From Anolis carolinensis (Eukaryota), in contig NC_085842.1 in NCBI RefSeq assembly GCF_035594765.1, positions 8,927,256-8,991,255 on the forward strand: a stretch of 64,000 nt of DNA, written 5' to 3'. How positions within the stretch are numbered: the stretch's first letter is position 1; every line of letters begins with the position of its first letter. The notes under the pieces were generated by a model that was given only the letters and a program-made list of their open reading frames with translations, was not told where the DNA came from and made no database searches. A program made the translations under genes and the position numbers. This document shows, one piece after another, positions 11,191 through 64,000 of the stretch.

Positions 11191-11315
11191 AGCCCATTGG
11201 GGGCGAAGGGGGAACAATAATCATCATTTATTTATTTCGGGTCAAAAGCATTGCATGATAATACGTTTAAAACTGATAAAATAGGGGGATCACAAGCAGC
11301 TAAATAGTTTTAGAC

Positions 11316-14300
11316 CAGTGATTCCCAAAGTGGGCGCTACCGCCCCCTGGTGGGCGCTGAAGCGATCCGGGGGGCGGTGATGGCACCTATTAAGACACAG
11401 GGGCGTGGCCAGGGGAGGGGTGTGGCTTCTTCCCAAGAGCCTGAGACAGGGCTGAGAATCTATACCTCTCCTGAGGCACTTGTTGGGACACAGAGGGCGG
11501 AGCTAGGGAAGGGGGCGGGGCCTCCTTCCAAGAGCCTGAGACAGGGCTGAGCCTCTATCCCTCTCCTGAGGCACTTGTTGGGACACAGAGGGCGGAGCTA
11601 GGAAAGGGGGCGGGGCCTCCTTCCAAGAGCCTGAGACAGGGCTGAGCCTCTATCCCTCTCCTGAGGCACTTGTTGGGACACAGAGGGCGGAGCTAGGAAA
11701 GGGGGCGGGGCCTCCTTCCAAGAGCCTGAGACAGGGCTGAGCCTCTATCCCTCTCCTGAGGCACTTGTTGGGACACAGAGGGCGGAGCTAGGAAAGGGGG
11801 CGGGGCCTCCTTCCAAGAGCCTGAGACAGGGCTGAGCCTCTATCCCTCTCCTGAGGCACTTGTTGGGACACAGAGGGCGGAGCTAGGGAAGGGGGCGGGG
11901 CCTCCTTCCAAGAGCCTGAGACAGGGCTGAGCCTCTATCCCTCTCCTGAGGCACTTGTTGGGACACAGAGGGCGGAGCTAGGGAAGGGGGCGGGGCCTCC
12001 TTCCAAGAGCCTGAGACAGGGCTGAGCCTCTATCCCTCTCCTGAGGCACTTGTTGGGACACAGAGGGCGGAGCTAGGGAAGGGGGCGGGGCCTCCTTCCA
12101 AGAGCCTGAGACAGGGCTGAGCCTCTATCCCTCTCCTGAGGCACTTGTTGGGACACAGAGGGCGGAGCTAGGAAAGGGGGCGGGGCCTCCTTCCAAGAGC
12201 CTGAGACAGGGCTGAGCCTCTATCCCTCTCCTGAGGCACTTGTTGGGACACAGAGGGCGGAGCTAGGAAAGGGGGCGGGGCCTCCTTCCAAGAGCCTGAG
12301 ACAGGGCTGAGCCTCTATCCCTCTCCTGAGGCACTTGTTGGGACACAGAGGGCGGAGCTAGGAAAGGGGGCGGGGCCTCCTTCCAAGAGCCTGAGACAGG
12401 GCTGAGCCTCTATCCCTCTCCTGAGGCACTTGTTGGGACACAGAGGGCGGAGCTAGGAAAGGGGGCGGGGCCTCCTTCCAAGAGCCTGAGACAGGGCTGA
12501 GCCTCTATCCCTCTCCTGAGGCACTTGTTGGGACACAGAGGGCGGAGCTAGGGAAGGGGGCGGGGCCTCCTTCCAAGAGCCTGAGACAGGGCTGAGCCTC
12601 TATCCCTCTCCTGAGGCACTTGTTGGGACACAGAGGGCGGAGCTAGGGAAGGGGGCGGGGCCTCCTTCCAAGAGCCTGAGACAGGGCTGAGCCTCTATCC
12701 CTCTCCTGAGGCACTTGTTGGGACACAGAGGGCGGAGCTAGGAAAGGGGGCGGGGCCTCCTTCCAAGAGCCTGAGACAGGGCTGAGCCTCTATCCCTCTC
12801 CTGAGGCACTTGTTGGGACACAGAGGGCGGAGCTAGGGAAGGGGGCGGGGCCTCCTTCCAAGAGCCTGAGACAGGGCTGAGCCTCTATCCCTCTCCTGAG
12901 GCACTTGTTGGGACACAGAGGGCGGAGCTAGGGAAGGGGGCGGGGCCTCCTTCCAAGAGCCTGAGACAGGGCTGAGCCTCTATCCCTCTCCTGAGGCACT
13001 TGTTGGGACACAGAGGGCGGAGCTAGGAAAGGGGGCGGGGCCTCCTTCCAAGAGCCTGAGACAGGGCTGAGCCTCTATCCCTCTCCTGAGGCACTTGTTG
13101 GGACACAGAGGGCGGAGCTAGGAAAGGGGGCGGGGCCTCCTTCCAAGAGCCTGAGACAGGGCTGAGCCTCTATCCCTCTCCTGAGGCACTTGTTGGGACA
13201 CAGAGGGCGGAGCTAGGAAAGGGGGCGGGGCCTCCTTCCAAGAGCCTGAGACAGGGCTGAGCCTCTATCCCTCTCCTGAGGCACTTGTTGGGACACAGAG
13301 GGCGGAGCTAGGGAAGGGGGCGGGGCCTCCTTCCAAGAGCCTGAGACAGGGCTGAGCCTCTATCCCTCTCCTGAGGCACTTGTTGGGACACAGAGGGCGG
13401 AGCTAGGAAAGGGGGCGGGGCCTCCTTCCAAGAGCCTGAGACAGGGCTGAGCCTCTATCCCTCTCCTGAGGCACTTGTTGGGACACAGAGGGCGGAGCTA
13501 GGAAAGGGGGCGGGGCCTCCTTCCAAGAGCCTGAGACAGGGCTGAGCCTCTATCCCTCTCCTGAGGCACTTGTTGGGACACAGAGGGCGGAGCTAGGGAA
13601 GGGGGCGGGGCCTCCTTCCAAGAGCCTGAGACAGGGCTGAGCCTCTATCCCTCTCCTGAGGCACTTGTTGGGACACAGAGGGCGGAGCTAGGGAAGGGGG
13701 CGGGGCCTCCTTCCAAGAGCCTGAGACAGGGCTGAGCCTCTATCCCTCTCCTGAGGCACTTGTTGGGACACAGAGGGCGGAGCTAGGAAAGGGGGCGGGG
13801 CCTCCTTCCAAGAGCCTGAGACAGGGCTGAGCCTCTATCCCTCTCCTGAGGCACTTGTTGGGACACAGAGGGCGGAGCTAGGGAAGGGGGCGGGGCCTCC
13901 TTCCAAGAGCCTGAGACAGGGCTGAGCCTCTATCCCTCTCCTGAGGCACTTGTTGGGACACAGAGGGCGGAGCTAGGGAAGGGGGCGGGGCCTCCTTCCA
14001 AGAGCCTGAGACAGGGCTGAGCCTCTATCCCTCTCCTGAGGCACTTGTTGGGACACAGAGGGCGGAGCTAGGGAAGGGGGCGGGGCCTCCTTCCAAGAGC
14101 CTGAGACAGGGCTGAGCCTCTATCCCTCTCCTGAGGCACTTGTTGGGACACAGAGGGCGGAGCTAGGGAAGGGGGCGGGGCCTCCTTCCAAGAGCCTGAG
14201 ACAGGGCTGAGCCTCTATCCCTCTCCTGAGGCACTTGTTGGGACACAGAGGGCGGAGCTAGGGAAGGGGGCGGGGCCTCCTTCCAAGAGCCTGAGACAGG

Positions 14301-15458
14301 GCTGAGCCTCTATCCCTCTCCTGAGGCACTTGTTGGGACACAGAGGGCGGAGCTAGGGAAGGGGGCGGGGCCTCCTTCCAAGAGCCTGAGACAGGGCTGA
14401 GCCTCTATCCCTCTCCTGAGGCACTTTTTGGGACACAGAGGGCGGAGCTAGGGAAGGGGGCGGGGCCTCCTTCCAAGAGCCTGAGACAGGGCTGAGCCTC
14501 TATCCCTCTCCTGAGGCACTTTTTGGGACACAGAGGGCGGAGCTAGGGAAGGGGGCGGGGCCTCCTTCCAAGAGCCTGAGACAGGGCTGAGCCTCTATAC
14601 CTCTCCTGAGGCACTTTTTGGGACACAGAGGGTGGAGCTAGGAAAGGGGGCGGGGCCTCCTTCCAAGAGCCTGAGACAGGGCTGATCCTCTATCCCTCTC
14701 CTGAGAGGCCTTTTAGGACTAAAGGGCGGGGCTAGGGGTGGGGGCGGGGCCTATTCCTAAGAGCACGAGACAGGGCTGAGCCTCTATCCCTCTCCTGAGA
14801 GGCCTTTTAGGACTAAAGGGCGGGGCTAGGGGTGGGGGCGGGGCCTATTCCTAAGAGCACGAGACAGGGCTGAGCCTCTATCCCTCTCCTGAGAGGCCTT
14901 TTAGGACTAAAGGGCGGGGCTAGGGGTGGGGGCGGGGCCTATTCCTAAGAGCACGAGACAGGGCTGAGCCTCTATCCCTCTCCTGAGAGGCCTTTTAGGA
15001 CTAAAGGGCGGGGCTAGGGGTGGGGGCGGGCCTCTTCCCAAGAGCGCGAGTCAGGGCTGAGCCTCTGTATACCTCCCCTGAGGTGCTTGTTAGAACACGG
15101 GGGCGGGGTAGAGAGGTTCAGCCCCATCAGGCACTTGGGAAGAGGCCCCGCCCCCTCCTCTAGCCCCACCCCCTGTGTCCTGGCAGGGACCGCAGGACAG
15201 GGATAGAAGCTCAGCCCTGCCTCAGAGCTCGTAACTCCGCCCATCCCGGTCCTGGCCGCCCGTTTGTGGCCCCGCCCACCTAGCCCTCCCCCTCCCCCTC
15301 CCAGCCCTGCATCTTGGACTAGGGGAGAGGCTCAGCCCCGCCCTCTTGAGCAGGAGCCACGCCCACCCCTCTAAGCCACGCCCCCTCCTTTCCAAGGGTC
15401 CCTGAGTAATATTTTTTCTGGAAAGGGGGTGGTAGGCCAAATAGTTTGGGAACCACTG
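11316..15458. mobile_element. Non-autonomous hAT element carrying an internal macrosatellite
   Basis: TIRs CAGTGATTCCCAAA / TTTGGGAACCACTG; perfect 8-bp TSD TTTTAGAC at 11308-11315 and 15459-15466. Confidence 0.92.
11400..15075 (+). repeat. 95-bp-unit tandem array (about 35 near-identical units, then about 4 units of a 94-bp variant)
   Basis: cctccttccaagagcctgagacagggctgag recurs at 11521, 11616, 11711 ... 14656; variant ctgagaggccttttaggactaaag recurs at 14701, 14795, 14889, 14983. Confidence 0.97.
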
Positions 15459-16257
15459 TTTTAGACCAAAAGCAGGCAACAGAAACTCCTCCTCCGTGCA
15501 CGAGGCAGGGCATTGTGGGCAAGCATACAGATGAGGAGTTGTTTGTTCTGCTCCACAGCCACACAAAGTGGAGGATTCCTCCAGGTCATGCCACCTTGCT
15601 AAGTTGTCTTTTGATCTGCCCACTTCCCTTCTGAGTCTGTTCAGTTGCCCATTCTTGGTTTGTCCCTAAAGGCAGACCCTCATGGGCTGGGGGGGGGGGG
15701 GTTCCAGTTGGGATTGCCTGGTTTAGCTGCCCAGAGAGATACTCTTGCTGTTGCTGGGGGCACATTGAGAGGAGCGGTGGTTCTCTTGAAGCTTTCCCTT
15801 GATTTGCGTCTACTGGGCGGAGGCTGGACATCCTGTGATTATTCTGCATGTTTTGTCAATGCTATGTTCACCTGCTCCACGTGCCAGATAGGACAGGCAC
15901 ACTCAGCAGTTGGGCAAGACAAGGCCAGGAATGATGTTCTTACTAATTTTGTAAACCCCAAACCCATCTGCCCCCAGGCCCCTCCCCTTCATGAGGCCAC
16001 AGCTGTCCCGTTCAACCTTTAGACCCGGCCTCTTCAACCTAGTGTTTGAGCCCCAACTCCCAGAACCCTACACAGCTTGTCCAATAGTCAGGACATCTGG
16101 GAACTGAAGTCCCAAACACCTGGGGAACAGCAGGGTGAAGAGGCCTGCTTTAGAGGAAGAGAATACCTCTTGGCCTCAAGTCCCGAGAAACATGGCCTCT
16201 GGTGAGGGGGATGCTGGGAGTTGCAGTCCAAACACCTGATCAGCCCAAGCTACAGGA

Positions 16258-17050
16258 ATGGTGTTCTTACTAGACATCAAGGGAACCACTGACCGCAGAG
16301 GCAAACTGATGAAGAAGCACAACCTACAAACTATCTACAGACCCACAAAGAAAAAACAACAAATGCTACGGTCAGCGAAGGACAAGAAGGATCCTCTCTC
16401 CTCTGCAGGAGTCTACCGGATACTATGCAGCTGTGGACAAGTCTACATAGGGACCACCACAAGCAGCAGCATTGCCCAAACAAGAGTCAAAGAACATGAA
16501 AGGCACTGCAGACTCATTCAAGCAGAGAAATCAGCCAAAGCAGAGCATTTGATGAACCAGCCTGGACACAGGATATTATTTAAGAACACAAAAATGCTGG
16601 ACCATTCTAACAACTATCATGTCAGACGACACAGAGAAGCCATTGAAATCCACAAGCATGTGGACAACTTCAACAGAAAGGAAGAAACCATGAAAATGAA
16701 CAAAATCTGGCTACCAGTATTAAAAAACTCAAAAATCAGAACAGTAGATGGGAACCAACACTCTGAGGGCAGAGGACAGCTAATGACTGAACAAAGGATG
16801 CCCCCAGGCAAGAGACAAAACACCTCCAATGCTAATGAGGGTGATTAACTGAAACATTAATGCTGGCTCCCAGTGACAAAGGACTCTTGCCACACCCTGG
16901 ACTCGACACAGATATATATATTCTTTCCTTTCCTTGCCCAGTTTCTCCATACCTCACAACCTCTGAGGATGCCTGCCATAGATGTGGGCGAAACGTCAGG
17001 AGAGAATGCTTCTGGAACATGGCCACACAGCCCGAAAGACATACAACAAC
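16258..17050 (+). mobile_element. Penelope-like element 3' portion (GIY-YIG endonuclease and terminal repeat)
   Basis: GVYRILCSCGQVYIGTT...RVKEHERH in ORF 16258-16848; hammerhead-bearing terminal sequence follows. Confidence 0.92.
16960..17000 (+). ncRNA. Minimal type I hammerhead ribozyme (Penelope-associated)
   Basis: CCT-CTGAGGA-T-GCCTGC(catagat)GTGGGC-GAAAC-GTC-AGG: intact core, stem II, loopless stem III, GUC cleavage triplet. Confidence 0.85.
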
Positions 17051-17077
17051 CCCGCCCCGCCCCCCTCCGGGAGTGGG

Positions 17078-17141
17078 CCAATCAGGCGCAGCGCCCCAGC
17101 CGCGTCATCAGTCTCCGGGGAAGGCGGCCCCCAAAGGCTCC
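17078..17141 (-). promoter_or_regulatory. Inverted MHC class II S-X-Y module
   Basis: Minus strand GGAGCCTTTG...CCTTCCCCGGAGACTGATGACGC-16nt-CTGATTGG; followed by GC boxes at 17050-17066. Confidence 0.8.
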
Positions 17142-17216
17142 CCGACGGAGCGATGGCCTTGCAAAGGAGGGGACCCCCCCCACCCCCCCACCCCCCCACC
17201 CCCCGGCTGGCTGGCT

Positions 17217-17280
17217 GGCTCCCTGGGAAGAAAGTCTCCCCGGCAACAGGCGGGTCATCGCGGGGCGTTTTTCCCATTGG
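17217..17280 (+). promoter_or_regulatory. Proximal S-X-Y promoter of the MHC class II alpha gene
   Basis: GGCTCCCT...CCCGGCAACAGGCGGGTCATC-16nt-ATTGG, 83 nt upstream of the ATG; same layout and spacing as the HLA-DRA X1/X2/Y boxes as recalled. Confidence 0.85.
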
Positions 17281-17363
17281 GTGGGCACCCGAGGGAAGGG
17301 AGGGGCGGGGCTCCGGGCTGCTCCTCCGAGGCGCCCCCTTGAGGCAGAGCAGAGCAGAGCGAG

Positions 17364-17436
17364 ATGGCGATCCTGGCGGGGCTCCCCCTCCCCCCCTCCT
17401 CCTCCTCTCGGGACCCCCCCCCTGCCGCTACGGAAG
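17364..17436 (+). CDS. MHC class II alpha exon 1 (signal peptide)
   Basis: ATG GCG ATC CTG (MAIL..), 73 nt, ends AAG|GTAAGC in phase 1; the hydrophobic LLLLS core lies in a shifted frame between two C homopolymers. Confidence 0.75.
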
Positions 17437-17755
17437 GTAAGCCAAGGAAAGGGGGGGGGGTCCTCGTGTTGGTTTTAATCCCTGGGCTGCACTAGTCTCT
17501 TGTGTCATCAAAGCCTGGCTGCTTCCTGCCTGGGGGAATCCTTTGTTGGGAGGTGTTAGCTGGCCCTGGTTGTTTCCTGTCTGGAAACGGCTCTTCCTCG
17601 TTCTCTCATTTGGACTTTATTTTTCTAGGTTGTTTTGTTTTGTTTGAAAGACACAGATTGGATGACTATGTCTTTTGTGGGCAAATTTGGCGTGATTTGG
17701 TTCAGTGGTGTTGTTGTTTACCCGGTCCTACAAACGCACATTACATTTTCATATA

Positions 17756-18126
17756 CAGTAGAGTCTCACTTATCCAACATAAACGGGCCGGCAGAACGTT
17801 GGATAAGCGAATATGTTGGATAATAAGGAGAGATTAAGAAAAAAGCCTATTAAACATCAAAATAGGTTATGATTTTACAAATTTGTTTATTTATTTATTT
17901 ATTTACAGCATTTATATTCCGCCCTTAAGCACCAAAACACCAATTAAGCACCAAAACATCGTGTTATACAACAAATTTGACAGAAAAAGTAGTTCAATAC
18001 GCAGTAATGCTACGTAGCAATTACTGTATTCACGAATTTAGCACCAAAATATCACAATGCTTTGAAAACATTGACTACAAAAATGCGTTGGATAATCCAG
18101 AACGTTGGATAAGTGAGACTCTACTG
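17756..18126. mobile_element. pogo/Tigger-like MITE (complete)
   Basis: TA-CAGTAGAGTCTCACTTATCCAA ... TTGGATAAGTGAGACTCTACTG-TA. Confidence 0.92.
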
Positions 18127-22719: not shown

Positions 22720-22977
22720 ACGTGCAGCTGGCCTTCTTCCAGGAGAGCTTCCCAGCAGGGACCGAGGTGGAGAGAGACGCGGGCGAGGGTCTGCAGGAGT
22801 TCGAGGGTGAGGCCGTCTTCCACGTGGACTGGGCCCAGAGGACCACCTCCTGGCGCCTCCCCGACTTCAGCACCTTCACCACTTTCCAGACAGCCGTGGC
22901 CCTGGGCAGCCTCTCCGTGGTCAAGCACAACCTGGAGTTCTTCATGGCGCACAGCAACCGGACGCGTGCCCAGAACG
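22720..22977 (+). CDS. MHC class II alpha exon 2 (alpha1 peptide-binding domain); 5' end hidden in a gap
   Basis: VQLAFFQES...EFEGEAVFHVDWAQRTTSWRLPDFSTFTTFQTAVALGSLSVVKHNLEFFMAHSNRTRAQN, with the class II alpha FHVD and WRLPxF motifs and an NRT sequon; donor G|GTACCC in phase 1. Confidence 0.93.
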
Positions 22978-26002: not shown

Positions 26003-26162
26003 GAGGTGGTCTCTGAGGGGGTGGAGGAGACGAGCTTCCTCCCAAATGCAGACAACACCTTCCACAAATTCTCCTACCTGCCCTTCGTCCCAGCAGACAG
26101 GGATCTCTACACCTGCCGAGTGGAGCACTGGGGGCTTGAAGGGCCCCTGACCCAGACCTGGG
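26003..26162 (+). pseudogene. MHC class II alpha exon 3 (alpha2 C1-set Ig domain), 3' half only
   Basis: [53 protein letters not shown], donor G|GTAAGT in phase 1; first Ig cysteine and conserved Trp absent. Confidence 0.92.
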
Positions 26163-28800: not shown

Positions 28801-31536
28801 TCAAAGCACCCCCGACAGATGGCCATCCAGCCTCTGCTTAAAAGCCTCCAAAGAAGGAGCCTCCACCACGGCCCGGGGGAGAGAGTTCCACTGCCGAACA
28901 GCCCTCACAGTGAGGAAGTTCTTCCTGATGTTCAGGTGGAATCTCCTTTCCTGTAGTTTGAAGCCATTGTTCCGTGTCCTAGTCTGCAGGGCAGCAGAAA
29001 ATAAGCTTGCTCCCTCCTCCCTATGACTTCCCCTCACATATTTGTACATGGCTATCATGTCTCCTCTCAGCCTTCTCTTCTGCAGGCTAAACATGCCCAG
29101 CTCTTTAAGCCTCTCCTCATAGGGCTTGTTCTCCAGACCCTTAATCATTTTAGTTGCCCTCCTCTGGACGCTTTCCAGCTTGTCAGCATCTCCCTTCATC
29201 TGCGGTGCCCAAAACTGGACACAGTATTCCAGGTGTGGTCTGACCAAGGCAGAATAGAGGGGGAGCATGACTTCCCTGGATCTAGACGTTATTCCCCTAT
29301 TGATGCAGGCCAAAATCCCATTGGCTTTTTTAGGTGCCGCATCACATTGTAGGCTCATGTTTAACTTGTTGTCCACGAGGACTCCAAGATCTTTTTCGCA
29401 CACACTGCTGTCAAGCCAGGCGTCCCCCATTCTGTATCTTTGATTTCCATTTTTTCTGCCGAAGTGAAGTATCTTGCATTTGTCCCTGTTGAACTTCATT
29501 TTGTTAGTTTCGGCCCATCTCTCTAGTCTGTCAAGATCGTTTTGAATTCTGCTCCTGTCTTCTGGAGTGTTAGCTATCCCTCCGAGTTTGGTGTCATCTG
29601 CAAACTTGATGATCGTGCCTTCTAACCCTTCGTCTAAGTCGTTAATAAAGATGTTGAACAGAACCGGGCCCAGGACGGAGCCCTGCGGCACTCCACTTGT
29701 CACTTCTTTCCATGATGAAGACGACGCATTGGTGAGCACCCTTTGGGTTCGTTCGCTTAGCCAATTACAGATCCACCTAACCGTAGTTTTGTCTAGCCCA
29801 CATTTTACTAGTTTGTTTGCCAGAAGGTCGTGGGGGACTTTGTCGAAGGCCTTACTGAAATCTAGATATGCTACATCCACGGCATTCCCTGTATCGACCC
29901 AACTCGTAACTCTATCGAAAAAAGAGATCAGATTAGTCTGGCATGACTTGTTTTTGGTAAATCCGTGTTGACTATTAGCAATGACCGCATTTGTTTCTAA
30001 GTGTTTGCAGACCACTTCCTTAATGATCTTTTCCAGAATCTTGCCTGGTATTGATGTGAGGCTGACCGGACGGTAATTGTTTGGGTCGTTCTTTTTTCCC
30101 TTCTTGAAGATAGGGACCACATTCGCCCTCCTCCAATCTGCTGGGACTTCTCCTGTTCTCCAAGAACTCTCGAAGATGATTGCCAGTGGTTCTGAAATAA
30201 CTTCCGCTAGTTCCTTCAATACTCTTGGATGTAGCTGATCTGGCCCTGGGGACTTGAATTCGTTTAGAGTGGCCAGGTGTTCCTGGACAACTTGTTTCCC
30301 TATTTGGGGTTGGATTTCCCCCAATCCTTCGTCCATTCCATGTTGCTGAGGTTGAAGATGGCTTTCTTTTTGTGAGAAGACCGAGGCAAAGAAGGCATTA
30401 AGCAGTTCTGCCTTTTCCCTATCCCCTGTCACCATCACCCCATCTACTCCTTGCAGTGGCCCTATCGCCTCCTTTTTCTTCCTTTTTCTACCAACATAAG
30501 CAAAAAAACCTTTTTTGTTGTTTTTTATGTCCCTGGCAAGCCTGAGCTCATTTTGCGCTTTAGCCTTGCGAACCTTTTCCCTACAGGAGTTGGCTATACG
30601 TTTGAATTCTTCTTTGGTGATTTCTCCCCTTTTCCACTTCTTGTGCATGTCACTTTTGAGCTTTAGCTCAGTTAGAAGTTCTTTGGACATCCATTCTGGC
30701 TTCTTTGCACTTGTCTTATTTTTCTTCTTTGTTGGCACTGTTTGCATTTGCGCCTTGAGTATTTCACTTTTGAAAAACTCCCATCCATCCTTAACTCCCT
30801 TGTTTTTTAATATCGGCGTCCATGGAATGCCGCTCAGTAATTCCTTCATTTTTTGGAAGTCAGCTCTCTTAAAGTCCAGAATGCGTGTTTGACTTGTCTT
30901 AGTTTCAGCATTCCTTTGTATTGCAAACTGCAGGAGCACATGGTCACTTGCCCCTAAGGATCCAACCACTTCAACTGTATTGATCAGGTCTTCCACATTT
31001 GTTAAGATTAGATCAAGAGTTGCTGATCCCCTTGTTGCCTCTTCTACCTTCTGGACCATAAAATTATCTGCAAGGCAAGTGAGGAATTTGTTGGACTTTG
31101 TACTCTTGGCTGAGTTTGTTTTCCAGCAGATATCGGGATAATTGAAATCGCCCATGACTACTATATCTCTTCTTTGTGCCTGTTTGGTCAGCTGTTGACA
31201 GAAGGCTTCATCAAGTCCTTCATCCTGACTCGGAGGTCTGTAGTAGACACCCACAACAAGATCTTTTTGAGTCCCGGTTCCCTTGATTCTTATCCAGATG
31301 CTTTCAAGCTGGTTTCCCGGATTACAGTCTTGCATTTCTTCTGCAACGTAACTGTTTTTGACATATAAAGCTACTCCCCCTCCTCTCCCCTTTGTTCTAT
31401 TTCTGTGAAAGAGGTTATAGCCCTCAATGGTTAAATTCCAGTGATGGGAGTCATCCCACCAGGTTTCAGTGATGCCTATGACATCGTATGTGTGGTGCTG
31501 TGCTAGGAGTTGGAGTTCGTCTTGCTTATTTCCCAT
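28801..31536 (-). CDS. CR1 ORF2 (APE endonuclease and reverse transcriptase)
   Basis: 911 aa open; [35 protein letters not shown]. Confidence 0.95.
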
Positions 31537-31727
31537 GCTCTGAGCATTAGTGTAAAGACATGTAAGCCCCTGTGACCTCCCCTCGAACTGTTTATTTGGG
31601 ATTATTGTGCTCTCTGTACTTGGTCCTTGCTGTGTTTGTGCAGCCCTCCGTTTAGCCTTACGGCGGTTCCCTGTGGTCGTGGGTAATATAGTGTTCGCCA
31701 GGCTGTTGTTCCCCTCCCCCAGTGGAT

Positions 31728-32990
31728 TTAGTTTAAAGTGCGCCTGATGAGGTTTGTGAGTCTGTGTGCAAAAAGATGTTTTCCTACTTGTGTGAGATGC
31801 ACCCCATCGCTTGCCAGTAGTCCATCCTCTTGGAAGAGTAGACCATGGTCAAGGAAGCCAAAATGCTCCTCTTGACACCATTTTCTGAGCCAGTTATTGA
31901 CCTGTACTATTTTTCCGGCCCTTGTAGAGCCATGTCCTACAACGGGGAGGAGGGATGAAAAGATCACATGTACATTATACAGTTTTAGCTTTGTTCCCAG
32001 AGCTCGAAAATCATTTGTGATCTTTTGAAAAGTATGCCTAGCGGTGTCATTGGTACCTACATGAATCAACATAAGGTGGGGAGGGTGATGGGGCTTTAGG
32101 AGCCTGCTGAGCCTCTGAGTGATATGGTGTATTTTTGCCCCCGGGAGGCAGCATGTTTCTCGAGCCATCCCATCCGGTCTGGAAATGATGGCTTCCGTTC
32201 CTCTAAGGAGGGAGTCACCTACTACCAAGACCTGTTTCCTTTGAGGATTGACAGGGTCCCTTTTGTGCAAGACAGTGTGTATGTCCCCTGAAGAGTGTTC
32301 CTGTTGAAGTGAATCATGTAGGTGTAAAGTGTTGTCCTCCTCCTCAACATCCCCAGTGCATTCATCAATGACAATCCATTGAGATACATCCGAGAGCCCA
32401 TTACTCTCCCAAGGATGTTCCTGTTGCTCCTGGTCTATGATTGGGGATGGAGCATTTGCATGATTACATAAGTGTGACTGTGGTGATGCACTGTCCCCGT
32501 CAGGGCTATCCCCTGCGCATTGATCCAGGATGGTCCACTGAGTGGTATCTAAGAAACTGTGGTCCTCCACAAGATGTGTTTCCTGATTGTATGTTAATGA
32601 TGTAAGAATTTCAAATCTGTTGTGTAAATGCAGCTGAGCAGAGGAGTTCTGCGGAGGCTGCCTGGTCCTGCGTCTCCTTCTATGGGTGACCTCCTTCCAA
32701 GCCTGAGGGTTGTCTACCTTTGAGTTGATCTCCCCATAAGGTTCCTGATCATGGTCTTGGTGGTGTTGGTGTGATGCAGGCTGCTGATCTACAGCAGCGT
32801 GTTGTGCAGTGTCCAAGAAGAGCTCGAGTGCCTGAATGTCCTTAAGGGTCTTAATACGGTGCTCGAGCTGTTGGATCCTCTGCTCCATCAGAGTCATCTG
32901 TTTGCATTTGGAGCAGATGTAGTTGTCTAGTTTTTGTGTGAAAAAGCGGAACATGCCACAGCTGGTGCATGTGATGGGAATGTTTTGCTT
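31728..32990 (-). CDS. CR1 ORF1 (zinc finger, coiled coil, SGNH esterase)
   Basis: CTSC...CSKC, heptad segment [32 protein letters not shown]; extreme 5' end truncated. Confidence 0.9.
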
Positions 32991-34764
32991 TTGTAACTCG
33001 GAACAACTTCGATGGCCTGTTGGCCGCAGACGCTATGCGGGCAGTCGTGAAAGCTTTCCTGGCTGCTCGCAAAGCCACGGAGTAAGCCCTAATAGCGGCT
33101 TTAGCCCGTGCTTGGTCAGACACATCCTGAGATTTCCTCCAGATGCACTCTAGTCCCCTCCTCGCACGCTTCATCACAGCCAGCTCCTCAGTGAACCAAG
33201 GAGTCGACGTGACTCTACGCAGCGAGAGGGGACGTTCGGGAGCAATCGTGTCAAGTGCCCTTGTCAGCTCACTATTATAGTGCTCAGCCAGGACATCGAC
33301 AGGATCTCCAGTCTCCAGAACAGGAAGATCCCCAAGAGACTTCAGGAGTCCATCCGGATCCATCAGCCTCCTGGGGCGGACCATCTTAGTGGGTCCACCA
33401 CCCCTGCCGAGGTTAGAAGACACGGCGAAACTTAAACAGATCAGATGATGGTCAGACCATGACAATGGAAGAATATTTTGCTCTTCCACTCTGACTGTCC
33501 CACCGTCCACAATAAAGACAAGGTCCAGCATGTGTCCCGCCTGATGTGTAGGCCCAGATATAACTTGAGTCAGCCCCATGGTCGTCATGGCAACCATGAA
33601 ATCCTGAGCTGCACCTGTCAATGTGGTCTCGGCATGGATGTTAAAGTCTCCCAAAACTATGAGTTGTTGGGAGACCAGGGCCGAATTGGAGACCACTTCT
33701 GCTAGCTCAGACAGAGAGACTGCTGGGTCGCGGGGTGGACGGTACACCAGCAGAATCCCCAAGCTGTCTCGGGCTCCCACCTTCAGGAAGACACACTCGA
33801 ACCTTGAAGATTGCGGAACGGCGCATCTGATCAGGGCAATGGACTGCCGAAAGATCACTGCGACTCCTCCTCCCCGCCCCCCAGCCCTGGCCTGCTGATG
33901 CACCCCGAAACCTGGTGGGCACAACTGGGTGAGATTCACCCCACCCAGCTCGTCCAACCACGTCTCGGTGATGCATGCCAGATCCGCCCCCTCATCCAGG
34001 ATCAAATCCTGAATGACAGCTGTCTTACCGTTGACGGATCTGGCGTTCAAAAGCAGAACCTTAAGACCAGGGGGTCTGTCATGGAGACTACCACACCTAG
34101 GGTCGCAAGAACCCGTTGCGCTTCTCCCTGGGCAGCAAGTGACCGATCTTCCTCCTCCCCCACACCACCTCGATGGTGCCCCACCCGTGTGACCCCTCTT
34201 TCCCCTGGTGGATTGGCTGATTGAGGTTGCCTTCTGAAGGGGTTAGTCAGCTGTCCAAAGATGGAGAGCCTCCAAATGTACTTGTTTGTCTAGGGAAAGA
34301 GCCCATCTCCACTGGTCGGAGAGAAAAGGAATCATCTGACATGGAGTCATCTGACGTGGAAAGGGGACTGAACAAGGGGACTGTGGGCAGGATTGCACTT
34401 TATTCTGCTCCTTTGTGGGAAATAACTTGACTTCTTACCCACTCCAAATCTCTCTGAGAACACTTTAGCACTTTGTCCATTCACGCTCCCTACTGGTATT
34501 ACAATACATATCTTTGCACTTTGCACCCACCCACCCCCATTTTATTCACTTTGCCATTAAATGGTGGGCTTTGTATTTTGTCATTTTATTATTGCACTAT
34601 ATTGCGTTATTGTGGTTTTAATGTGTTTTTATTGTTTGAAGATGCTGTCTATACATGTATTTTATTTTACTTATTGTTTGTTTTTTGGGCTTGGCCCTGT
34701 GTTAGCCGCCCCGAGTCCCTGTGGGGAGATGGAGGCAGGATAGAAAAATAAATTATTATTATTT

Positions 34765-35232
34765 ATTCTAACAACTATCATGTCAGACTACACAGAGAAG
34801 CCATTGAAATCCACAAGCATGTGGACAACTTCAACAGAAAGGAAGAAACCATGAAAATGAACAAAATCTGGCTACCAGTATTACAAAACTCCAAAATCAA
34901 AACAGTAGATGGGAACCAACACAATGAGGACTTGACTGAACAAAGGATGCCCCCAGGCAAGGGACAAAACATTTCCAGTGCCAATTAGGGTGATTAACTG
35001 AAACATTAATGCTGGCTCCCAGTGACAAAGAACTCTTGCCACACCTTGGACTCTACACAGATATATATTCTTTCCTTTCCTGACTTAGTTTATCCATACC
35101 TCACAACCTCTGAGGATGCCTGCCATAGATGTGGGCGAAACGTCAGGAGAGAATGCTTCTGGAACATGGCCACACAGCCCGAAAGACATACAACAACCCT
35201 GTGATTCTGGCCATGAAAGCCTTCGACAACAT
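34765..35232 (+). mobile_element. Penelope 3' fragment with intact hammerhead (35107-35147), following an L2 tail
   Basis: Matches 16605-17050; cctctgaggatgcctgccatagatgtgggcgaaacgtcagg. Confidence 0.88.
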
Positions 35233-35933: not shown

Positions 35934-36101
35934 AGTCCAAGGGGCCTTCCCGGGCCCTTCCCGGAGACGGCTGAGAACGTGCTCTGCAGCCTGGGCCTGG
36001 CCATCGGCATCCTGGGCATCATCGTGGGCACCGTCCTCTTCTTCAAGGCCATGAGGATGACCTACCGCAACAGCCGTGGAGGACAAAGTGGTGGCCTGTG
36101 A
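35934..36101 (+). CDS. MHC class II alpha exon 4 (connecting peptide, TM, cytoplasmic tail)
   Basis: PETAENVLCSLGLAIGILGIIVGTVLFFKAMR..., the class II alpha TM signature; acceptor cccacccccAG| at 35933; one base out of frame with exon 3. Confidence 0.92.
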   Translation, partial: SPRGLPGPFPETAENVLCSLGLAIGILGIIVGTVLFFKAMRMTYRNSRGGQSGGL

Positions 36102-36310
36102 GTCCAGTCTGTTCCAATTCAGGAACCTGGCTGAGCTGAGAAGCAATGGGCTAGACAAGGGGCAACTGCGGACCCCTAGGCAAAGTTGCCATGGAGGGAG
36201 AGGGCGGGGGCCAGTTTTGTAGAAAATGTTCTTTGCTGGTCACCATCAATTGAGCTGGACATGTAGATGGGCTTCTCCGGCTGTGCTTTGTATATAGCTG
36301 TAATTACTGC

Positions 36311-36316
36311 AATAAA
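36311..36316 (+). terminator. Polyadenylation signal of the MHC class II alpha gene
   Basis: AATAAA 210 nt after the stop, followed by a GT-rich tract at 36349-36368. Confidence 0.7.
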
Positions 36317-60712: not shown

Positions 60713-61106
60713 TGTCAGGGTGCAATAAAGAACAGCATCCTCAAAGCTGGTCTTCTCGCAACCTGACTACAAGAGGACAGAGGAAGGAGACCATTTGGCG
60801 GGATAGGCTGATTTATGACAGGGTCTGGTCTTCAAACGTGGGAAAGGACAAAAGGAAAGGGAGGTGTGGATGGAGAAGGAGGAGGGGGGAGGCAACAACC
60901 CCATATACTGAGGGGAAAAGCGGAAGAGGGTCAGTAAAAGCTATTGCAGTCATCTTGGCAAGGCGGATTCAATAAAGTTTTCCATTGCGACCAACGGTGT
61001 GAGCCTATTTCTTGGGTCCCACACCTTCCAGGAACGGACATTAAGCTTTTACTCCCTTTTTTTTTTTCCGGCTCATCCCGTGAGGAAAGGTCTCTCCGGT
61101 GAGAGC

Positions 61107-62477
61107 ATGAACCCTGATGGAGGAGAAACCATGAAGGAATTCCTCTTCCTGGTAGAAGAACAGGCGAACCCTCGAGGTGCAGAGGAGTTGAGAGAGGAAA
61201 GAAACCCATCGCCCGCGTTGAGCGAAGGGGGGACAGACCCCTCGGACCCGTCGTGGAAGCCGCTGACCTCCACCCAGTTACCCGCAGGCAGGGGAGTGAC
61301 GGTGAGACGGAAGATCCAGATGGGAGGCGATTGGCAGCGAGACGGAGAGGGAGCCCCGGAGATGAGAAGGATGGAGAGGAGATTAGATGCGATGGAGGAA
61401 ATGTTTGAAACTTTCTCTCGACAGATGAATCTGATGCAGCGGCAGGTAAACGAGTCCTGGAGGGCGACAGTCGAGCAACGGGAGCAGAGGAGAGAGCTGC
61501 CCGGGAGAGGCACTGAACCCCGTCCCTTTGCCGGGGAGGGTCCACAGGACTATGAGGACGAGATGCCTCAGCAGGGCACATCAGTTTTCCCCACGGGCCT
61601 GTCGGGAAGGAGCCAAATGCCTGGGAAGGGAGAATTTCGGGTGAAGTTCAACGGGGACCCCAAACAGCTGTCTTATTTCATTACAAACGTAAGACACTTC
61701 ATGGAGGATTTTGGGGACCAATTCCCTTCAGAAAGCGCAAAAATCCACACGGTGGGGGCAAACTTGAAAGAAGCAGCTGCAGACTGGCTAATGCAGATGT
61801 ATGATACTGGTGCCCGGGAGCTAGCCTGCCTGGAGGATTTCCTAAGAGCCCTCCGTGAGAGATTCGAAGACCCTTTGGCAGAGGAGAGGGCGAAGGCCCA
61901 ACTCAAAAGGATATACCAGGGAGGAAGGACAGTGTCAGAATACGCCCTGGAATTTAAAGCCACAGCGGGGAAGATTAGGGACTGGTCCGACACCACCAAA
62001 CTGGAATATTTCAGGGCTGGTTTACGCTCTGAGGTGCTCGAGTGGGCTTTACACAGAGGAAATCCAAGAGACTTGGAGGACTGGATTTTGCTGGCGGGGC
62101 GCGTGGAGGTGGACCAACAGCAAATCTCTCGTCGTCCAAGGGAGAGCGACAGAATCAAACCCCCGACAGCAGCAACACGCCGCTTCTCCCCTCGTCGTGG
62201 AAGGTCGACCAGCAGGGAGAGGAGAGCAGGGAGGGGGGCCTGCTTCGCTTGCGGGCGCGAGGGACATCGAGCGGCAGAGTGTCCGAAAGGGACAGGCGTG
62301 GAGACAAAAGGAGAGAGGCTTCACAGCCAGAAGCTGCCCCACCAGAACTCCAAACTAGCAAAAGGGAAAGCTGCCATGGCAACGGAAACGGCTTTAGCCC
62401 CAGGGCAGCTTCAGGCAGAAGAGATGGAGGAAGCGGAGGACCTGGAGTTACCGGGAAACGACCGGGATCTGTTTTGA
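61107..62477 (+). CDS. gag: Gypsy Gag (capsid plus CCHC knuckle)
   Basis: KFNGDP...AADW...QGGRTVSEYALEF...FRAGL; CFACGREGHRAAEC. Confidence 0.9.
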   Translation: MNPDGGETMKEFLFLVEEQANPRGAEELREERNPSPALSEGGTDPSDPSWKPLTSTQLPAGRGVTVRRKIQMGGDWQRDGEGAPEMRRMERRLDAMEEMFETFSRQMNLMQRQVNESWRATVEQREQRRELPGRGTEPRPFAGEGPQDYEDEMPQQGTSVFPTGLSGRSQMPGKGEFRVKFNGDPKQLSYFITNVRHFMEDFGDQFPSESAKIHTVGANLKEAAADWLMQMYDTGARELACLEDFLRALRERFEDPLAEERAKAQLKRIYQGGRTVSEYALEFKATAGKIRDWSDTTKLEYFRAGLRSEVLEWALHRGNPRDLEDWILLAGRVEVDQQQISRRPRESDRIKPPTAATRRFSPRRGRSTSRERRAGRGACFACGREGHRAAECPKGTGVETKGERLHSQKLPHQNSKLAKGKAAMATETALAPGQLQAEEMEEAEDLELPGNDRDLF

Positions 62478-64000
62478 ACGCCCGGAAACAGATCGAACCA
62501 CCAGAGGGCGAAGGGGGTGAGTTGAGAAGAGTAAATTGTGACATTGTGAGAGTCAGAGTGAGGCTGTTGAACCCAGAGACAGGGATTCAGGTAGAGGCAG
62601 ATGCTATGTTGGACTGTGGGTGCACGAGATGCCTAATTACTCCCGAACTAGCAAACAGGTTGGGGGTGGAGCCAAACCCACTAAAGACACCAGTAGTCTT
62701 CGCACAATTGGATGGAACCCCAGCATACGGAGTCCCAGTAACAGAAAAAACAGGGTTTTTAAGAATGACTATGGGTTCTCATGCTGAGACATTGCAATTT
62801 GTGATTTCAACAATGGCACATCAGCCAGTCATTTTGGGCGTTCCTTGGCTGAGATGGCAAAACCCTCAGATTGACTGGAAAAGGGAGACATTTACTTTCT
62901 GGGATGGAAATTGCAATTTTGAGAGTACCCCGAAAGACATAGAGGTACTGGAGCCAGAGTGTGACCAGTTGCCCCCTCATAGGAAGTGCAATTGAAATAG
63001 ACCCCAATGCCAAACTACCTAAGCCAAAACTCTATGCAATGTCGGAACCAGAGAAAAGGGCACTCAGAGAATTTATTGACAAAAATATAGAGAGAGGCTT
63101 CATCGAGCCATCTCAGTCCCCCATGGCAGCTCCAGTATTTTTCAGGCCAAAAGCAGACGGCCTAAGATTGGTCGTGGATTATAGAGGTCTTAACGCAATA
63201 TCCACCACAAACCAATACCCACTTCCCCTAATGTCAGAGATGTTGCAATCAGTAGCAGACCCCTCGAGACCGTGGACGGATATAGCTATGGACTTTGTGG
63301 TAGACCTGCCCAACAGCAACGGTTTCAACACAATCTGGACTATAATTGACCTGTTCTCCAAACAAGCTCACTTCGTGGCCCTTAAGAGACTTCCAACGGC
63401 ACCCGAGTTGGCCAAATTGTTTCTGCAACACGTGTTCCGCCTGCACGGGTGTCCCAAGCGGATCATAAGTGACAGGGGCTCTCAGTTCACATCGAGGTTT
63501 TGGAAGTCTTTCCTGGGTATTTTAGGAACTGAAAGGGCCCTGAGCACAGCCTTCCATCCAGAAACAGACGGAGCCACCGAACGGGTTCAGAAGACCCTTC
63601 AGCAGTTCCTCCGTTGCTACAGCACGTACCAGCAAGATCAATGGTCCTCGATGCTACCACTTGCCGAATATTGCATTAACAATTCGGATCACGCGTCCAC
63701 TGGGGTCTCTCCGTTTAAAGTTGTGAACGGCAGAGATTTTCCGCCATTCCCCGCACTGCAAAAGGAGTTGCCTTCTGACGAGAAGCCAGGGAATTGGGGC
63801 GAGAAGATCGCTGCCGCTTGGCCTTCGGTTCAGGAGGCCTTGCGCACCGCCAAAGTGGATTACAAGAAATATGCAGATAGAAAGAGAACAGCACCACCGG
63901 ACTACAAAGTGGGGGAGTTAGTGTACTTGTCGACAAAGCACCTGAAATCCACACAACCATCCCGGAAGCTGAGCCCACGATATGTTGGTCCCTTTCCCAT
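62453..64000 (+). pseudogene. pol: Gypsy pol: protease, RT N-terminus fused to integrase core
   Basis: AMLDCGCT and ILGVPWL (protease); frameshift at about 62990; RLVVDYRGLN..YPLP joined at about 63245 to PWTDIAMDF..ISDRGSQF..ETDGATER..YVGPF. Confidence 0.88.

Follow-up and report, generated by a model that had tools for sequence, protein, structure and literature searches.

A likely relic divergent promoter of a decayed MHC class II alpha/beta gene pair in Anolis carolinensis

The alpha and beta chains of MHC class II molecules must be made together. In mammals, RFX, CREB and NF-Y bind cooperatively to the X1, X2 and Y boxes and CIITA is recruited, with tight spacing between the boxes (PMC2278383, PMC4381081). 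Head-to-head class II pairs are already known, as is the conservation of S-X-Y outside placentals, opossum modules lying within 273 bp of the start (PMC1351924). The locus described here lies in a stretch of 64,000 nt of Anolis carolinensis DNA (the window; contig NC_085842.1) and carries two such modules back to back, the forward one in front of a class II alpha gene and the reverse one facing repeat-like DNA. Did the reverse module once serve a beta gene? An earlier note on the sequence had proposed as much, tracing the arrangement to an alpha/beta pair driven from about 200 bp of shared promoter.

Two opposed S-X-Y modules and a broken alpha gene

The modules and the sequence adjoining them are as follows.

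17050..17066, minus strand: GC boxes following the reverse Y box, truncated by a repeat
17078..17141, minus strand: reverse S-X1-X2-Y module (S 17141-17135, X1/X2 17119-17102, Y 17085-17078)
17142..17216, no strand: spacer of 75 bp separating the two S boxes and containing a C-rich run (17175-17204)
17217..17280, plus strand: forward S-X1-X2-Y module, the alpha-gene promoter (S 17217-17224, X1 17239-17252, Y 17273-17280)

Judged by the patterns used, both modules carry X1, X2 and Y in the correct order on one strand. In the reverse module the S-like box GGAGCCT (17141-17135) has no mismatches and lies 15 nt from X1; X1 itself, CCCGGAGACTGATG (17119-17106), also matches the X1 pattern used without mismatch, is overlapped by the X2 box TGACGC and is followed by the Y box CTGATTGG (17085-17078). 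The forward module has a weak S-like box (17217-17224; two mismatches to the S pattern used) 14 nt from X1, the X1 box CCCGGCAACAGGCG (17239-17252; two mismatches to the X1 pattern) and the Y box CCCATTGG (17273-17280), and stands 84 nt upstream of the alpha ATG. Together the two fit within 203 bp, facing apart. The X1-Y spacer is 23 nt in each, which is the HLA-DRA value. In its anatomy the earlier note was accurate: complete X-Y modules are present on both strands where it had placed them, each with the claimed 23 nt from the end of X1 to ATTGG, the separation it gave as about 75 bp is exactly that between the S boxes, and the GC boxes (17050-17066) abut, as it had said, a repeat end, at about 17052. 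It overlooked the broken state of the alpha gene and the four further X-Y modules at 10483-10815.

A search for X1 with at most two mismatches, exactly 23 nt and ATTGG returned two matches in the window, both of them these modules, as against a mean of 0.05 and a maximum of 1 expected by chance from 100 dinucleotide shuffles of 1-kb blocks, the X1 pattern having been drawn up after the sequence had been seen. Widening the spacer to 20-28 nt gave seven matches, compared with a mean of 0.54 (maximum 4) in shuffles; of the five additional ones, four make up the cluster at 10483-10815, and the seventh match, at 2038-2083 with two mismatches and a spacer of 27, is within chance.

In box order, orientation and equal X-Y spacing the arrangement resembles the mammalian S(W)-X1-X2-Y promoter. 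It differs in having two predicted modules in 203 bp that face apart, in the weakness of the forward S box and in the broken state of the attached genes. The TAP1/LMP2 (PSMB9) promoter also serves two divergent MHC genes from one short region, described as shared (PMC2191963), whereas the anole has a full module for each direction. Because an S-X-Y module clears nucleosomes across 200-300 bp in mammals (PMC2677874), two modules within 203 bp would be likely to share one open region.

The gene to the right belongs to the MHC class II alpha genes of Anolis carolinensis and spans 18.7 kb of the window.

17364..17436, plus strand: alpha exon 1 (ATG 17364, donor GT 17437)
22720..22977, plus strand: alpha exon 2 (alpha-1 domain), open; Pfam MHC_II_alpha, E 5.9e-16
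26003..26162, plus strand: alpha exon 3, 3' half only; tblastn with intact anole alpha chains begins at 26003
35934..36316, plus strand: alpha exon 4 in its natural acceptor frame; AATAAA at 36311

Exons 2 and 3 contain no stop codons, and exon 2 is 99-100% identical to A. carolinensis models. The exon 3 remnant covers only positions 40-86 of the 86 of the C1-set domain; its 5' half, with the first Ig cysteine, was found nowhere in the window by tblastn or Pfam, and repeats abut the remnant. Read from its natural acceptor, exon 4 is frameshifted and terminates ahead of the transmembrane helix. Three upstream AGs in a purine-rich context could rescue the frame of exon 4 and would leave exon 3 unrescued. 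In exon 1 no hydrophobic leader core is encoded in the ATG frame, which could be a homopolymer error. Neither a complete alpha-2 Ig domain nor an in-frame transmembrane exon was thus found in this gene; green anole has two other coding alpha genes on record (XP_062825535 and XP_062829208).

Contigs from other sequencing runs bear on both modules and gene. One from run X2 covers 17030-17293, and so joins the two modules in an independent data set. Across four runs the modules show few differences, whereas exon 1 carries deletions (17305-17452) that differ between contigs of different runs: an X16 contig skips all of 17305-17452, that is, the whole of exon 1, and contigs from X11, X16 and X17 are shorter over the start-codon region and lack the start codon. 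Some of these deletions may be assembly artefacts, since the stretches are low-complexity. No splicing is seen where the X11 and X17 contigs, guessed to be RNA, pass over the modules, the repeat junction or intron 1; they may be DNA and are therefore uninformative on transcription, and contigs from the sequencing runs are unstranded.

A tree built from 12 lizard alpha chains places the window gene outside the other seven anole chains (support 83); its identity is 68-71% with six of these and 60% with the remaining one. In view of this position and these identities, no orthologue is established for it.

Repeats, a putative beta last exon and a tandem array

Leftwards from the reverse module comes repeat-like DNA only, namely a Penelope-like copy, short repeat fragments and a split LINE-like 3' end, an assignment that partly rests on presumed repeat families. 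Beyond it lie a putative exon and a tandem array.

16255..17052, plus strand: Penelope-like repeat adjoining the reverse arm (left end approximate)
11229..16010, minus strand: LINE-like 3' fragment, split by a 4.1-kb element
10995..11166, minus strand: putative beta last exon (acceptor AG 11166-11165, exon 11164-10995, AATAAA at 11000)
10483..10815, minus strand: four tandem X1-X2-Y units, a putative 3' enhancer cluster (spacers 26/25/26/26)
10815-10771, 10709-10666, 10633-10589 and 10527-10483, minus strand: the array units

The first repeat starts about 25 nt beyond the reverse Y box and has another copy at 34765-35199, to which it is 92% identical. It is presumably Penelope-like, and the fragment at 11229..16010 presumably LINE-like; Pfam gave no match for the open reading frame of the Penelope-like copy. 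The idea that the shortened repeat end is a deletion scar was dropped: other copies stop within about 35 nt of the same place and, because they end at nearly the same base, the end at 17052 is on its own no sign of a deletion. The ends of the 4.1-kb insert (11316-15458) are short and inverted, and 8-bp duplications of the target site stand at 11308 and 15459. Inside it lie a GC-box minisatellite of 39 units of 95 bp (11394-15106; 76 GC-box hexamers) and an inverted unit at 15112-15230. Rfam returned no matches in 9900-18000.

Beta exons 2-4 (beta-1, beta-2 and transmembrane) were not found by Pfam, six-frame tblastn and profile search. The Pfam scan took 140 of the 148 minus-strand stop-free frames of at least 28 aa left of the alpha gene, leaving out eight low-complexity frames and the minisatellite frames; both positive controls matched, and no MHC_II_beta or C1-set domain was found in the 140. 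An Ig_6 match (E 0.038) was below the cut-off and taken as noise. Six-frame tblastn with 119 beta chains, together with a profile of 86, had the alpha-2 remnant as its sole class II match, the other low-E tblastn matches being those of one protein's N-terminus to LINE DNA. The 119 fetched proteins include no squamate beta chain, and the 86 full-length chains come from crocodilians, turtles, tuatara and a few mammals, again with no squamate. Accession order as a stand-in for gene order was abandoned, since no anole beta chain had been retrieved. A 24-nt microexon resembling beta exon 5 was not found in the window either. No intact beta gene diverging from the alpha gene was thus found here and, because exons 2-4 and an exon-5-like microexon were not found, we file the locus as a relic rather than a working pair.

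As to class II coding sequence near the reverse module on its own side, there is only the putative last exon, about 6 kb away on the minus strand. Of the 86 full-length beta chains, 75 have the C-terminus G-L-L-x, a tail encoded by a short phase-1 last exon. At 11164 an acceptor with 19 pyrimidines in 20 positions leads into a phase-1 frame, x-V-G-L-V-E-stop (stop 11147-11145), followed by about 145 nt that are unique in the window. Of the 177 strong acceptors on both strands, only those at this site, which has two adjacent AGs, are followed by G[LM][LVMI]x-stop; 0.065 were expected. The exon has six codons and fits G-L-L-x-stop at two fixed residues only; because the motif was loosened after the site had been seen, the match is suggestive, not proof. 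We regard 11164-10995 as likely to be the last exon of a beta gene.

The array follows the putative beta poly(A) signal at a distance of 170-500 nt, on the same strand; its four units lie within 333 bp and have no clear S box. It is CpG-rich (observed/expected 0.88). Between units the X1X2 boxes are 90% alike and ATTGG, on which the units were selected, 100%, as against 61% for spacers and 52-55% for flanks, which is the pattern expected under selection on the boxes. Human motifs under CIITA regulation are 46-50 bp long, those of class II promoters 47-49 bp (PMC2278383, PMC4381081), so that the spacers of the array, longer by two or three nucleotides, are at or just past the edge. The array is likely a cluster of enhancers; its position, off any known start site, fits a distal element of the S'-Y' type. 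Extra X-Y modules off a working start site are also seen at the HLA-DRA S'-Y' and the intergenic CIITA sites of the DR/DQ super-enhancer (PMC2677874, PMC4381081); those are single modules kilobases apart, whereas in the anole one module lies 75 bp from the promoter and the tandem of four, whose spacers are longer, takes up 333 bp. As a candidate enhancer cluster the array deserves study of its own.

Head-to-head pairs in relatives and look-alikes in green anole

In Supplementary Table 9 of Card et al. 2022 (PMC9679377), the congener A. sagrei has on scaffold_2 a IIa gene, ANOSAGT006752, at 307295684-307304545 on the minus strand and a full-length IIb gene, ANOSAGT006753, at 307304610-307313915 on the plus strand. 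The two are head-to-head, with 5' ends at 307304545 and 307304610 and models 65 bp apart; these annotated ends are inexact, because 65 bp is too short for two modules. ANOSAGT006752 is separated from ANOSAGT006751 by 1.07 kb. The genes of a second pair, 5.15 kb from each other, have the same orientation, and its IIb seems to be the copy that lacks exon 2; for two IIa genes no IIb partner is listed (PMC9679377). The class II set of A. sagrei is alpha-rich, the same table listing four IIa and two IIb genes, with about six alpha chains in protein records. Class II pairs are head-to-head in crested ibis and Oriental stork as well (PMC4172706, PMC5314415, PMC4302302); tuatara has no obvious alpha/beta pairing (PMC4502378). 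Intact pairs of this kind therefore exist in A. sagrei, ibis and stork, their orthology to the window locus not being established. In the ancestral state of our locus alpha and beta would likewise have faced away from a common intergenic region; unlike those pairs, the presumed pair in the window has decayed. The comparison is one of gene orientation, the partial source texts giving no promoter anatomy: the word 'promoter' does not occur in the main text of PMC9679377 and PMC5314415 and occurs once in that of PMC4172706.

Look-alikes of the reverse module, 84 nt long with 12-13 differences, occur in other green anole contigs from two of the four runs. One of them (X16 record 8) extends 218 nt past the GC boxes, in sequence unlike that of the window, with 30 letters of the extension visible. 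Both (X11 record 3 and X16 record 8) hit repeat or transposon ends right behind the S box, at 17150. Forward look-alikes are of two kinds, and one of them carries 181 nt of upstream sequence with no reverse-module match among the matches listed. Because look-alikes meet repeat ends or show no paired module among the matches listed, the compact back-to-back form may survive in green anole at this locus only. Compactness is probably not required, as the look-alikes seem to have been split by transposons. The repeat end at 17150 is a different one in each of the two reverse look-alikes, and elements may have inserted preferentially into open chromatin between the modules.

Of the earlier note's broader proposal, the ancestral alpha/beta pair gains from the A. 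sagrei coordinates, the ibis and stork pairs and the likely beta last exon on the minus strand. Its compactness of about 200 bp is present at this locus; as a conserved feature it finds no support, given look-alikes that run into transposon ends and a second A. sagrei pair 5.15 kb apart. Nor does the sharing of one promoter, each direction having an S-X-Y of its own.

Origin of the reverse module

We consider it probable that the locus is the relic divergent promoter of a decayed head-to-head alpha/beta pair in which each gene had its own S-X-Y module, the beta gene having been deleted save for its promoter and the putative last exon. The reverse module would then likely be the promoter of the lost beta gene, the deletion would have taken beta exons 1-5, and the locus is now probably a dead copy, inert. 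By analogy with mammals, RFX would in the intact state have occupied X1, CREB X2 and NF-Y Y, with CIITA recruited at each module. Alpha transcription would have started rightwards and beta transcription leftwards, probably from one short nucleosome-free region common to both modules, and the two chains would have been induced together. Later, beta exons 1-5 would have been deleted and the alpha gene would have decayed, leaving the promoter behind.

In support of this reading, the modules are far above chance, opposed and equal in their 23-nt spacer. The two A. sagrei pairs have the orientation it requires. A beta-like terminal exon appears to lie on the correct strand and side, with nothing but repeat-like DNA separating it from the module, the decayed alpha partner fits a dying pair, and beyond the GC boxes one reverse look-alike goes on for 218 nt in other sequence. 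Against it, the window alpha gene is not a clear orthologue of any A. sagrei gene and solitary IIa genes exist in that species; the putative exon has six codons with two fixed residues, and tuatara shows no obvious pairing; reverse look-alikes end at transposons at 17150, and one forward look-alike has no reverse module among the matches listed.

The reverse module might instead never have been beta's and have served alpha as a second, upstream S-Y enhancer. HLA-DRA has such an S'-Y', in inverted orientation, at a distance of 2.3 kb; the anole one would be much closer, and the array would then be a further distal enhancer. There is precedent in that the HLA-DRA distal S'-Y' is bound by RFX and CIITA (PMC2677874), and such a role would agree with the failure to find beta exons 1-5, the solitary IIa genes of A. 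sagrei and an array with the same X type away from known start sites. We nevertheless think it unlikely: a congener has IIa and IIb head-to-head with 65 bp between them, on the matching strand there is what resembles a beta last exon, together with a poly(A) signal, and GC boxes follow the reverse Y box, with a look-alike running on into other sequence.

A divergent promoter of the same origin could also have been retained after both genes died, its modules still acting as CIITA enhancers on class II or other genes nearby. The lack of mismatches in the reverse X1 and Y to the patterns used would agree with this, as would the few module differences among four runs as against the exon 1 deletions, and array motifs kept at 90-100% where spacers (61%) were not. 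The open frames of alpha exons 2 and 3 point the other way, since decay may be too recent for the motifs to have eroded, and the array spacer is 2-3 nt off a promoter spacing that is tightly constrained in mammals; retention thus seems to us quite improbable. That an intact beta gene, past the left window edge or in unread stretches and with transposon-swollen introns, is still transcribed from the reverse promoter deserves hardly any credence: an alpha gene of 18.7 kb implies that introns can be long, the window contains 2659 unread bases and in 2022 full-length green anole IIB was known from RNA only, but the repeat about 25 nt past the Y box leaves no space for exon 1, neither the 140 minus-strand frames nor six-frame tblastn or the profile gave a beta domain where the alpha-2 remnant was detected, and the putative last exon is already reached at 11164.

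Returning to the relic divergent promoter, a bolder extension is conceivable, which we put forward tentatively. Anole class II pairs could be run by a switch a few hundred bases long: two cross-activating, back-to-back CIITA enhanceosomes would tie alpha to beta output, with the four-unit X-Y cluster 3' of beta acting as a compact locus control region, perhaps outliving its genes. The literature search, whose coverage takes in few subscription journals and leaves out the 2003-2004 work on distal S'-Y' enhancers, found no description of back-to-back S-X-Y pairs or of a reptile tandem X-Y array; the partial texts of PMC5437515, PMC6155461, PMC10845735, PMC12619710, PMC2192314 and PMC4374748 hold nothing on paired modules. 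A natural 200-bp piece with both promoters is a ready dual-reporter substrate for mutual help between modules, and the array offers a test of how strict CIITA spacing is outside mammals. The locus may also be a record of the birth and death of a class II pair, in which the promoter outlasts the gene, and it raises the question of whether the single distal S'-Y' enhancers of mammals are leftovers of lost partner genes. This value is tempered by the pairs and S-X-Y conservation being known and the copy being probably dead.

The wider neighbourhood of the alpha gene holds four further features.

28801-33032, minus strand: near-intact LINE in alpha intron 3, presumably CR1-like, with open frames of 434 and 1015 aa
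43742-44950, minus strand: about 13 C2H2 zinc fingers in an array that lies downstream of the alpha gene and faces it
60912-62995, plus strand: Ty3/gypsy-type gag and protease frames (Pfam), overlapping in different frames
3275-3940 and 55775-56450: a composite repeat-plus-flank block present twice, 52 kb apart, with GATA microsatellites after each

The last two blocks look like a local segmental duplication that brackets the locus.
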